DNA from: Waddliaceae bacterium
GTDB taxonomy: Bacteria > Chlamydiota > Chlamydiia > Chlamydiales > SLFE01
NCBI GenBank assembly: GCA_963771045.1
Contig: CAVYRW010000004.1
Location: 1,344,001-1,408,000, forward strand
DNA length: 64,000 nt
Direction: 5' to 3'
Shown: positions 1,607-7,702 of the stretch, in pieces
Layout: each line of letters begins with the position of its first letter
Numbering within the stretch: the first letter of the stretch is position 1
Notes under the pieces: generated by a model
The model's database searches: none
What the model was told of the DNA's origin: nothing
The model's input: the letters and a program-made list of their open reading frames with translations, nothing else
Program-made: the position numbers and the translations under genes

Positions 1607-1839
1607 AAAATTTTGTAAATATTGTCCAACAGCGGAGCGTTCTCGAACCAATTTATAGAGGGAATGAAGCAAATCTTTAAGTTAGAACCCATTTTAGAGG
1701 TGCGGTTAATTCGACCTGGTGAGTCTCAACAGGCTGTTAGAGACTAATGGCAGTGTAACAAGGTATTACCAAAAGCCTGCTATCCTCCTAAGATGAAATA
1801 GAACCATTAGAGAAAGGTGGTAAAACAAGAACGCCAACT

Positions 1840-2796
1840 TTATTGACGTTGTGCAATCACTGTAGGAAAAATTCCTGCTCTATCTTGGATAATGCGAATA
1901 TCTGAGAATCCTGCATCTTTTAGCTGTTGTACGGTCAGCTCAGATGAGCGATAGGCTTGCCAAGCTACAGATAAAATATCAGCAAAGATTATTTTTTGAA
2001 GACGAGCATCCATTTGGTTGATTTCAGATGTGTTCCATTCCAAGTTATCAGTTAATCCTGGAGGAGGAGTTAGAAAGCTAGTAATCAGGATTCCACCTGG
2101 CTTCAGGTTATCGAAGAACTGACGGTAAAGTTCAACAACGCGGGTATCATCATGTTCATAGATATTGAGGCCATTGCTTGTGATAACATCCACCTTCCTG
2201 GGTAAGGGAGTACGCCAAGCATCACCCTTTACAAACGAAGCCTTTTGGCTTTGATTACTGGTTAAAACTCTTTCTTGAACATCTGAAATAGCATTGTCAT
2301 CTATATCAACACCATAAAGCTGATAATCATTTAAATCAGAAAAATCGAGAGTCAACAAGTCACTCATCAGGCCACAAGGAATAGAAGCAAGTGCAGTTCC
2401 ATTCGTGCAGTGTTTTTGAAGTTCCTGTTGGAAAATAACGAATCTCTCCTGTGTTGCTAGACAGGTAGGTGCACGATTAAGGATAAAATCTTCAAATTCA
2501 GAAAAAGGCTGACCATCAGAATTTAATCCTGTAATCCTACCTCTACTAGGGTGCATAAGAATATAGTTAGTCCAGTACCCATTGAGTCCCTTATTCTGAA
2601 TAAGAAATTGGCCCAAAGGGAACGAAGCCATCGCGTTTAAGATTTTTAGTTGCTCAGTTACTGAGACGTGTGGCAAATCTCCCCTCTCTTGGATTTTCTT
2701 AGATAAGCTTTTTATTTCCTTATCTAGGGAGGATACATGTTGACCATGACTCAGCATGCGAGTTTTTTCATCAGTACAAGAGGTGGTTGGGTTCAT
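1840..2796 (-). CDS. Class I SAM-dependent methyltransferase
   Basis: LASIPCGLMSD, YGVDID, GDAW, DVITSNGL, LKPGGILIT motifs. Confidence 0.8.
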   Translation of the reverse strand: MNPTTSCTDEKTRMLSHGQHVSSLDKEIKSLSKKIQERGDLPHVSVTEQLKILNAMASFPLGQFLIQNKGLNGYWTNYILMHPSRGRITGLNSDGQPFSEFEDFILNRAPTCLATQERFVIFQQELQKHCTNGTALASIPCGLMSDLLTLDFSDLNDYQLYGVDIDDNAISDVQERVLTSNQSQKASFVKGDAWRTPLPRKVDVITSNGLNIYEHDDTRVVELYRQFFDNLKPGGILITSFLTPPPGLTDNLEWNTSEINQMDARLQKIIFADILSVAWQAYRSSELTVQQLKDAGFSDIRIIQDRAGIFPTVIAQRQ

Positions 2797-3000
2797 ATCT
2801 TTTATCCTTCCTCGTTTTTGATTGTAAGAAAATATTGTACATCTTTTATTAGAAATTTTTCAAGGTCTACGTCGTTTCAGTAATTCCAAATTCAGGCTGG
2901 AGCTTACATTAGGCATGTAAATTTTACCTTGAATTGGCTTTGTTGCGTAATTAACCACAGAGCTCACAAGAGCGCACAGAGAGAATATGAGAGATTTGAT

Positions 3001-3945
3001 TTAAGCTGCTATTAATTCACTTTCAGGCATTCCCAGCTTTGTCATTATATTTAGTGCTTCACATTTTGCCCTTGATTCAGCCCTTTGGGTTTCCAGAGTT
3101 CTACTTCTTAAATCATTTCCAAAGAATCGTTTAAATCTAAACATGGCTGTTTCTGCAAGTGATCGACGATGATAACCTTTCAACTTTTTCCATAATTTTC
3201 TTGCATCATCATCACCTCCTAAACCTGAAATTTCCAGCAAACTGATATTCCGCATCTTCCAAGAAGGAGATATGTTTTCTCGAAAAACAGCATTCCTATT
3301 GGGTGGAATAATAGGAATTGAGCCGTGAACTACATTTGCAGCATAGCATCGCTTAGTATCATAAGCCCCATCTCCATATGTGCGCTTAACTGATTTCGGC
3401 ATTACCTCGAGAAGTTTTGGATACACTTCACAATCTGCAACGTTATTTTCAGTAAGAATTTCGAAAATAATTTCGTGAGAGTCAGGGCAGACTGCCAGAT
3501 GGAGCTTTCTCCATGTTCGCCTTTTACTGATTCCATGCTGCCTAACTTTCCATTCACCCTCTCCGTACACTTTCAAACCGGTTGAATCGATTACAATATT
3601 GGTGACTTTTTTTTTCGAAAGTTTCTTCAACTCTTGCCCCAACAACTTAGCTCTCCGACAAATTTGAGTATAAGAAGGAATCGATAAACCAACAGATAAA
3701 ATCATAACAAGAGATGTCAAAAATCCTTCGAGTGCTCTCAATGGAAGATGAAAAACCGATCGAATAATGAGCGCGGTGAGAATAGCGTCATCAGAATAGA
3801 GTTTTGGACGCCCCTTTTTTCCTATTTCTTTTGGAGCCATCCACTTATTGATAGCATCTTCAGAAAACCAAACAGTTATGCTTCCCCTTTGAATAAGAGA
3901 TTTGTTATAGTCGTTCCAGTTGCGAATGCGATATTTTGCCTTCAT
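3001..3945 (-). CDS. IS5-family (IS903 group) DDE transposase
   Basis: NW..YN..L..RGS.T.W, IDSTGLKVYGEGEW, RRTWRKLHL, DGAYD, YHRRS.AET.MFR.K motifs. Confidence 0.95.
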   Translation of the reverse strand: MKAKYRIRNWNDYNKSLIQRGSITVWFSEDAINKWMAPKEIGKKGRPKLYSDDAILTALIIRSVFHLPLRALEGFLTSLVMILSVGLSIPSYTQICRRAKLLGQELKKLSKKKVTNIVIDSTGLKVYGEGEWKVRQHGISKRRTWRKLHLAVCPDSHEIIFEILTENNVADCEVYPKLLEVMPKSVKRTYGDGAYDTKRCYAANVVHGSIPIIPPNRNAVFRENISPSWKMRNISLLEISGLGGDDDARKLWKKLKGYHRRSLAETAMFRFKRFFGNDLRSRTLETQRAESRAKCEALNIMTKLGMPESELIAA

Positions 3946-4029
3946 CTTGATCCTCCAATTTGTTGCAACTAAAAATTAGAGTATTAGGTATTTGTCGGCA
4001 AGCTCGCATTCGCCCTTTTTGGAGAAAAG

Positions 4030-5960: not shown

Positions 5961-7570
5961 TATTTGTAGTAAAGGATATGTATATTAGGAGAATGAACAT
6001 GTTCAAATCACAAAACCCTGATGTAAAAAACAATGCTGAAACCAGTATAGAAAAAAATATTTTCCTGAATCATCTCCAAATAAAAACATTGCATCATCAG
6101 ACAGGTCAAGCATCTTGTATTGATACTGGTTCTTCTCATCAAGCAAACCTTTCTTGTATGTTTGACGTAGGAACGGCCATAGATAGTGTTGAAGCGATGA
6201 AAGAATGGATGCAGAGATAAATCGAATCGGAAAATTACATAAACAATGAGGCTGTAAATGTGTTTACACAGTTTATTTTACACCCTCAAAGCTTTTGACT
6301 TTCATCAAAAAAAACAAAGGTCTGATACAGAAAATTCTTGTGACAAAGATGTGTCGCTTTTCAAGAAACTTTTTTGAGTCAATTCTGATGATGGAAGAGC
6401 TGAAAAAATATGAGGTTTCTGTTTCACCTTTAGATGCTGTAGGAGAGTCAGATGACCCTGCCGCATTTATCCATCAGGTGTTCTCAATTGCTCTTCCTGA
6501 AGTTGATAATAGAATGCGTTCAAAAAACACTAAAGAAGGTATTAGAAGGGCTCTAAAAGACGGCTATTATCCATATGGGATGCCACCCATCGGCACTCAA
6601 AAGACCATGGAGGTACAAAGACACCCCTGTTAATTCCAAATGAAAAAGCAGAGCTTGTTGTTGAGGCTTTTGAACTATTTTCAAGTGGGCTCTATCAGCT
6701 AGAAGAGTTGCGGAAAAAGCTTTGAAAGAAAGGAATGAAGCTAGGAGATACTCAATTTGGTCAGATATTGAGAAATCCCATCTACATGGGAAAGATAGTG
6801 GTGCCAGAGTACAAAGATGAGGAAGCTTGTTTAGTCAATGGCCTTCATCAGGCTTTGGTATCAGAGAGTCTTTTTCTAAAAGTACAACGTATTCTCGAAA
6901 GCAGAAGAAACAAAAATTTACATGTGGTTGGAAAAAGCAAGTTAAGGGAAGAGTTGCCCCTAAGGGGGCATTTGAAGTGCTATAAATGCGGTCGGATTTG
7001 GACAGGGAGTGTTTCCAAGGGAAATGGGGGTAAATATGCCTATTACCACTGCCACAACGAATGCGGAGAAAGGGCACATGAAAAATTTAGCTCCCAATTG
7101 CAAACCCTCAAGCCCAAGCCTGAAATAGCTGAGCTTTATCTTGCCATGATGGAGAAAACTTTTAAGCAAAAGGAAGGGGATAGGGAACACCAGCTTCGGA
7201 AACTCAAAGCTGATTTAGAGCGTCACAACGAAAACCTGTTGAAGTTCGACCAACAACGATATATTACTGGGGAGCTAGCGCACGATTCTTATGTAAGATT
7301 AAAAGAGCATACTCAAAGTCAAATCGATTCTTTGAAATTGAGAATCGATGAGCTCACCTTCTCCGACACAGCTTTTGAAAAATATTCAAGATATGGCATG
7401 AGTTTTCTCACTCACATGGACCTTTACTATGAAATGGCAACCTTGGAAGTAAAACAAAAAATCCTTGGTTCGATATTTCCTCAAAAACTGGTCTTTGAAG
7501 ATGAGAATTATCGAACCGATGGAATGAACTCCGCACTTGCTCTTATCTTACAGAGTTCCAGTGATTTACA

Positions 7571-7616
7571 AAAACAAAAAAGCGGAGAATCTATCTTTTC
7601 AGAAAAATTCTCCGCT
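7571..7616 (-). terminator. Probable intrinsic terminator downstream of tRNA-Leu
   Basis: Stem AGCGGAGAAT (7581-7590) / ATTCTCCGCT (7607-7616) followed on the minus strand by TTTTTGTTTT. Confidence 0.6.
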
Positions 7617-7620
7617 GATG

Positions 7621-7702
7621 TGCCCAGGAGAGGACTCGAACCTCCACACCTTACGGCACCAGAACCTAAATCTGGCGTGTCTACCAATTCCACCACCTGG
7701 GC
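7621..7702 (-). tRNA. tRNA-Leu (anticodon TAG); CCA not encoded
   Basis: GCCCAGG acceptor stem, TGGTAGAC D-loop, CCAGA-TTTAGGT-TCTGG anticodon arm, long variable arm, GGTTCGAGTCC T-arm. Confidence 0.95.

Follow-up and report, generated by a model that had tools for sequence, protein, structure and literature searches.

We report that a 64,000-nucleotide stretch of a Waddliaceae genome (assembly GCA_963771045.1, contig CAVYRW010000004.1, positions 1,344,001 to 1,408,000; here called the window) contains a decayed mobile island of about 6 kb, which adjoins the extreme end of a tRNA-Leu gene and belongs to a family in which the gene for a large serine integrase spans the attachment site of its own element (attP) and has its 3' end exchanged at the tRNA. 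We consider it nearly certain that this architecture is real and family-wide. In the mechanism that we propose, a small integrative element targets the final bases of the acceptor stem of tRNAs, and the circular form would encode an enzyme with a conserved helical tail of 40–48 residues that the integrated form would lack. The tail likely biases the enzyme towards integration, and its loss likely permits excision.

The only tRNA gene in the window, tRNA-Leu(TAG), occupies positions 7620–7702 on the complementary strand and is whole, as the original prediction had expected from the reciprocal join. The body of the recombinase gene (6289–7622, forward strand) reads …EKFSADV up to 7622 and continues into a substitute C-terminus of 44 residues antisense to the tRNA (7623–7757), with the stop codon at 7755–7757. 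At the opposite end of the island, an orphan frame on the same strand, SNSGAFSNQFIEGMKQIFKLEPILEVRLIRPGESQQAVRD plus stop codon (1625–1747), encodes a 40-residue tail with the motif SNQF, and this separated 3' end can be joined in frame to the recombinase through the TG at 7621–7622 and 1623–1624. The dyad arm (10 of 11 matches) with TG in register occurs once on the forward strand of the window, at 1623, and five times in the 5.14 Mb of the genome, both strands included, the expectation being about 0.01 per 10 kb. Local sequence leaves the join ambiguous, with 17 micro-homology joins at the island ends, one of which has a longer TGT overlap, and it is therefore the empty site that decides in favor of TG.

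The protein encoded by the host GNAT acetyltransferase gene in the left flank (908–1606, forward strand; Pfam PF13302) was searched against 41 genomes, and orthologs were found in both genomes of the same genus (G001, 91% identical; G002, 71%). In these island-free relatives the gene adjoins the tRNA's 3' end. The G001 site reads …CTTT AAATAT TG CCCAGGAG, followed by the tRNA, which is an exact match to the empty site AAATAT-TG-CCCAGG that had been predicted, and G002 is likewise without the island. The segment 1625–1747, whose persistence beside the GNAT gene in such relatives had been named as evidence to the contrary, is absent from both. Furthermore, a contig of sequencing run X5, in which 1607 is joined to 7621 through TAT, has the same empty joint. 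The distance from the GNAT stop codon to the site is 12 bases longer in the window than in G001. The empty site rules out the TGT-overlap join (QQRSVLE…) and the other alternative joins at the island ends, and together with the in-frame join it bears out the placement of attP inside the recombinase gene.

The recombinase of the window is the sole gene of its kind in the genome, and the description of it as a pseudogene was well founded. Compared with the intact relative in locus L042, the first 69 residues, in which the catalytic motif is located, have no match, and the remainder has suffered a frame change near 6594–6627, a stop codon at 6723–6725 and a gap of five codons. A partial resolvase domain, retaining only profile positions 60–143, is found at 6295–6633, and the recombinase and zinc-ribbon domains follow from 6735 (PF07508 above the cut-off, PF13408 slightly under it, 22.4 versus 25.3 bits).

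The other members of the family were collected as the best 80 of 443 matches, giving 79 genome loci in addition to the window, labelled as metagenome-assembled genomes of Chlamydiae, Verrucomicrobia and Bacteroidota; judged by these labels, the host of the window copy is probably a chlamydia of environmental type. In-frame read-through into an antisense tRNA was identified at 61 of the 80 loci, covering 18 anticodon types, and the junction is at the acceptor tip in every case. Most of the 88 nearest proteins found have tRNA-antisense residues at their end, and an antisense motif of the G-x-E-P type lies within the last 75 residues of 119 of the 150 best cluster representatives (50% clustering). 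Tail-like ends were recognized by eye in about 9 of these 150, two of which (P0198 and P0242) score more than 20 bits on the tail profile. The intact relatives have the YxRVST catalytic serine motif (in A4) and the PF00239 resolvase domain, and a CxxC motif is invariant in the family. Sixteen loci were located on viral contigs, with no tRNA called beside any of them, and three of these (L021, L023 and L025) end in tRNA-antisense-like residues. No close relatives were found among 72,556 plasmids and 50,697 phages, where the best matches listed are 21–32% identical and stop before the tail.

The expectation that circular and integrated forms encode different C-termini was realized in locus L179, a sequence of 7,749 nt with a terminal overlap of 79 nt (one mismatch); its order is that of the integrated elements L053 and L181, circularly permuted. 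Encoded on it is an intact protein of 565 residues, P0147, with body and tail in one frame, as opposed to the antisense read-through of integrated copies. P0147 remains below the NCBIfam cut-offs for SCCmec CcrB (97 versus 900 bits), CcrC (75 versus 900) and XisF (100 versus 375). Tandem arrays, in which the gene arm of one element meets the tail of the next, are common, with 15 clear cases among 67 tails. In addition, eight mini-elements of 1.8–6.5 kb (L118, L133, L149, L151, L163, L167, L175 and L178) keep both ends, that is tail and tRNA junction, without the integrase body; they are probably either deletion remnants or elements moved in trans.

Do the tails matter as protein? In a dyad scan of 49 loci that used no protein information, the sites coding for SNQF came first or second in the window, L042, L072, L082 and L102. 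With the tail profile, tails on the strand of the gene were found in a further 14 genome loci, preceded by host DNA or by the gene arm of another element, and 75 loci came from a scan of metagenomes with the tail alignment. In total, 96 tails could be anchored, of which 67 are non-redundant; the frame of the join is open for at least 30 codons in 59 of these 67, compared with 0 and 6 in the other frames. The ratio of non-synonymous to synonymous differences (pN/pS), estimated from 54 nearest-neighbor pairs that are not independent of one another, is 0.95 for codons 1–9, within the arm of the attachment site, and 0.21 for codons 10–22, beyond it (shifted frames 0.88 and 2.01; all-pairs value 0.32). 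By these ratios, the first nine codons evolve as a DNA site and codons 10–22 are under purifying selection as protein, which means that the tail matters while it is attached, in the one state in which this is so. The conserved SNxFxE-like ending that was anticipated in homologs thus exists, in the form of the SNQF tail.

These data also bear on the hypothesis that the swap is a mere by-product, the tail being the natural end of the protein into which attP has drifted, with the exchange tolerated and put to no regulatory use. The range of the substitute tails, from 10 to 69 residues, indicates that sequence past the junction is tolerated, and the site-like evolution of the first nine codons points the same way. 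Yet the selection on codons 10–22 is difficult to reconcile with such a history, as is the register of the junction, which is fixed across two phyla, and we regard this explanation as unlikely. Even less probable, and in our view the least probable of all, is that the displaced tail is translated alone from the left junction as a peptide acting in trans. Of 45 orphan tails, 40 start with TTG, ATG or GTG at the junction codon, and the tail in the window follows the GNAT gene on the same strand. However, an N-T-G codon is forced by the core, a Shine-Dalgarno-like 4-mer precedes only 5 of the 45, and the flank is arbitrary host DNA.

A comparison of 36 elements with both ends, some of them duplicates of one another, suggests how the tRNAs are recognized. 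A TCGAAC-type motif lies at positions 14–19 in the tRNA arm, which is the T-loop, and at positions 19–24 in the attP arm; the anchors for this 5-bp offset were set on the motifs themselves, a circularity that speaks against the offset, and its independent support consists of the core shared at both anchors and the empty site. In the window, the motif is located at 7636–7641 in the tRNA, which acts as arm B' of the host site (attB), and at 1643–1648 in arm P' (1625–1649, forward strand); arm P (7598–7622, forward strand) lies within the coding sequence and ends in the right junction core TG. The zinc-ribbon motif of such sites has been placed at 16–24 in attP and 11–19 in attB by Rutherford et al. 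(PMC3783163), and it is by this spacing rule that the motif in P' is predicted to be the target of the zinc-ribbon domain. We infer from the site sequences that what this domain reads in attB is the near-universal TCGAAC of the T-loop and, in attP, the same motif lying 5 bp farther from the center. The recurrence of the T-loop motif in the attP arm is likely the reason why one enzyme is able to use many tRNAs. Integrases that are 98% identical are inserted in tRNA-Leu(TAA) in L053 and in tRNA-Thr(CGT) in L181, and a second pair, 95% identical, in two Leu isoacceptors.

The symmetry of the sites refines the position of the crossover. In 17 reconstructed attP sites the axis falls after the G, with 10.6 of 20 matches versus 5.2 for an axis within TG. 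The attB sites are barely symmetric (6.2 of 20), and the enzyme probably recognizes mainly their tRNA half, via the T-loop. At least three bases, T-G-N or T-A-N, are common to both junctions in 35 of the 36 elements, the window alone having only two, and 2 to 15 bases, mostly 3–8, are shared rightward of the core start. Because the axis follows the G and 35 elements share at least three bases, the core dinucleotide is more likely G-N than T-G. The left junction core of the window (1623–1625, forward strand) differs from the C of the tRNA at its third base in this copy only, and the T at 1625 would then be a later change. The join at the shared TG, as originally predicted, therefore holds with respect to the reading frame and the empty site, but TG itself is probably not the core dinucleotide.

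Two hairpins were observed near the junctions. In L042, a GC-rich hairpin with flanking A/T runs (3880–3911) just outside the left junction is probably a displaced tRNA terminator. In the window, a second inverted repeat with 16-nt arms (88% complementary) lies at 7581–7616 within the integrase coding sequence, where it overlaps the P arm; when the minus strand is read, it directly follows the tRNA on the downstream side and could be a substitute terminator.

The predicted structure of P0147 has a mean predicted local distance difference test score of 81.6 and a predicted template modeling score (pTM) of 0.44. It matches the SPbeta, Bxb1, phiC31 and LI integrases (Foldseek E 4e-19 to 9y66_A), with long helices at 352–399 and 405–430. 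The solved integrases align only to model residues 486–497, where those proteins end, whereas the tRNA-end family adds about 70 residues, of which the last 47 are swapped. Since the junction, at residue 518, falls beyond the aligned part and within a linker of low confidence (<50), integration takes away an added part and the integrase that stays behind is complete. A tail helix is predicted with good confidence at 526–536 (block means 68 and 88), and tail positions 10, 11, 14, 17 and 18 form a hydrophobic pattern. The model thus portrays the tail as an amphipathic helix on a flexible linker of 20 residues.

In 37 of 62 intact genes, a strict pattern detects an open reading frame (ORF) of 50–80 residues that overlaps the integrase start or lies directly against it, and more cases were seen by eye (L179 35–208; L042 9235–9420; and many other loci). 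It was not detected in the window. Its product had no NCBIfam match and no Pfam-named look-alike, and the leads from the Atlas are unnamed (best score 0.84); from its position, it is a candidate directionality factor. In SPbeta, according to the structural account (PMC11722253), direction is set by a helix that the directionality factor places between the zinc-ribbon domain on one side and the hinge of the coiled coil on the other; integrase residue F532 matters for direction as well.

We favor, with a probability of about 0.5, the hypothesis that the tail of the tRNA-end integrases acts as a tethered helix favoring integration. By docking on the hinge between zinc ribbon and coiled coil, it would keep the enzyme out of the excision state, and the tail-less form would excise, helped by the small protein of 55–65 residues that is encoded across the start codon of the integrase. 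A single integrated element possesses the tail-less gene alone and must use it to excise, and a circle possesses the tailed gene alone and must use it to integrate. A directionality switch by tail swap is therefore a plausible candidate role.

The strongest rival, although a less likely one that we would entertain only tentatively, is attenuation of the type known from Mx8. Under this hypothesis the tail would raise activity or stability in both directions, integration would turn the enzyme down and stabilize the island, and direction would come from the small upstream protein alone, the conservation of which agrees with the idea. There is also precedent in two papers: in Mx8, 112 residues are replaced by 13 and the activity is lower (cited in Ambroset et al., 2016, PMC4701971), and dsiB of the Dehalococcoides islands was proposed to be fully functional only on the circle or beside another island (McMurdie et al., 2011, PMC3146451). 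Against attenuation, the tail-less form retains all domains that align to the solved integrases, including the part that matches SPbeta 530–535, and must still excise; moreover, the small ORF has no Pfam-named look-alike and is no more than a candidate factor.

Yet another hypothesis is that a protease tag at the end of the tail makes the circle-encoded integrase short-lived, much like a tag that is reportedly present in the repressor of mycobacteriophage BPs. Alanine occupies one of the last two positions in 33 of 57 tails, 20 of which end in AS. But many of those ending in AS come from close relatives, the tail in the window has VRD at its end, and the conserved part is the helix at codons 7–26 rather than the end. 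This explanation is improbable, and we rank it just below the by-product and above the peptide acting in trans.

Several observations weigh against a family-wide switch operated by the tail. The window copy is dead, and the mechanism cannot be shown from this fossil. The circular junction that had been expected for it was not seen in contigs of 4 out of 20 sequencing runs, whose cover of the locus is low and mostly insertion sequence (IS). L179 could be a collapsed tandem repeat. In a comparison that addressed whether tailed genes are purged from chromosomes, 1 of 7 tailed genes at inner tandem junctions was intact (the circle) versus 6 of 21 genes adjacent to a tRNA, so that the former are not significantly more decayed. 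The tails were collected with a profile built on the motif and a peptide pattern, which makes the invariance of the motif partly a matter of construction and leaves the synonymous excess as the independent part of the conservation evidence. Of the 13 loci of the Chlamydia type whose flank is 7 kb or longer, 9 have a tail upstream, as against only 1 of the 24 others (mostly Bacteroidota), where the far end is unproven; a broader second-round profile gave no further Bacteroidota far ends, although fused tails of the Bacteroidota type exist among proteins (P0134–P0136, P0198 and P0242). No contacts were seen in the P0147 model, whose pTM is 0.44. Finally, the conserved small gene could by itself supply ordinary directionality control.

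Other genes lie on the island. A SAM-dependent (S-adenosylmethionine-dependent) methyltransferase gene (1840–2796, complementary strand), present as a single copy in the genome, is classified as cargo. An IS5-family element (2936–4499), flanked by a 9-bp target duplication CCTTGAATT, encodes a transposase (3001–3945, complementary strand) and, in divergent orientation, a nuclease-like GxxExxY protein of the PD-(D/E)XK type (4030–4437); as the element is present in about 15 near-identical full copies in the genome, this passenger gene travels with the IS. An IS256-family element (4564–5960, forward strand; transposase 4666–5913; 9-bp target duplication TATTTGTAG) has six near-identical copies in the genome and occupies the position of the regulator genes and integrase start of intact relatives. 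The backbone of intact elements (L042 5400–9137; L179 4109–7619) contains an AbiE-like gene pair of the toxin-antitoxin type and two helix-turn-helix genes, one of them MerR-like; these labels were assigned by eye, as NCBIfam placed the genes in none of its families. Genes for conjugation or of phage type were recognized in neither backbone. In L144 (11303–12030), two C-terminal integrase remnants stand back to back with tRNA-Phe and tRNA-Leu on opposite strands. In L068 (4914–5114), the integrase runs on into a different tail of the NLELRDKKLFIHYREPF type about 120 nt before a tRNA-Leu, which may be a tail of a second class or the leftover of a different element. The labels of L037 and L070 as Chlamydia trachomatis look doubtful, as these elements group with the environmental Chlamydiae.

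The idea of a C-terminal swap is not new for serine integrases, having been put forward in 2011 for DsiB and in 2016 for the elements inserted in rumA. In the description of the Dehalococcoides islands, the 3' end of dsiB, which encodes about 540 residues, always overlaps the att junction antisense into the transfer-messenger RNA gene ssrA (McMurdie et al., 2011). Those islands resemble the present ones in that the 3' end of a large serine recombinase gene crosses the att junction into a structural RNA gene, and in their tandem arrangement, a likeness drawn from the published description. They differ in their insertion in the T-loop of tmRNA and in their 20-bp direct repeat, whereas all 61 read-through loci here are at tRNA acceptor ends, with a core of 2–3 bases and no repeated tRNA fragment. 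The dsiA-recF-parB-mom module was not recognized by eye in the ORF lists of L042 and L179, some of whose ORFs were also scanned. Likewise, in the integrative and conjugative elements (ICEs) that streptococci carry in rumA (Ambroset et al., 2016, PMC4701971), the att site lies within a single serine integrase gene, whose C-terminus becomes different in length and sequence on integration. Their repeats are 2–21 bp. These are large conjugative elements of the Bacillota; what they target is a protein gene, and 3' ends are exchanged reciprocally. Here the targets are tRNA genes. Integrases of the Mx8 and SSV types, as cited in PMC4701971 and PMC4383910, also have attP in int, and a swapped C-terminus with a less active integrated form. 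They are tyrosine recombinases of unrelated chemistry and site structure, unlike the serine recombinase domains found here. The target of Mx8 is said to be a tRNA. With the canonical large serine integrases (LI/A118, SPbeta SprA, Bxb1 and phiC31), the family shares domain order, fold, short core and the 5-bp motif offset. In the tycheposon preprint, a large serine recombinase is present in 27 of 937 elements. We found no description, in the full-text literature searched, of this family or of tRNA acceptor ends as targets of such an enzyme, although the TIGER and Durrant tables may list such islands.

These elements have implications for how integrases are found and studied. With at least 18 anticodon types as targets and no repeated tRNA fragment, the islands would be missed by island finders that rely on repeats. 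Furthermore, gene callers record the tail-less product of the integrated form as the integrase, and tests of annotated proteins may thus use the wrong form. The direction of serine integrases is an active structural question, and here nature provides one enzyme in two forms, a single helix being the difference; intact genes, att sites and a candidate factor are at hand for the family. It is possible, although we put it at clearly less than an even chance, that the family represents a widespread and previously undescribed class of serine integrases that can use any tRNA 3' end as attB via the T-loop and that have a directionality helix added and removed by recombination, the tailed form integrating and ignoring the small factor and the tail-less form excising. 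If so, this would be a natural self-switching integrase, and one that would serve as a tool for non-disruptive insertion across a broad range of hosts.

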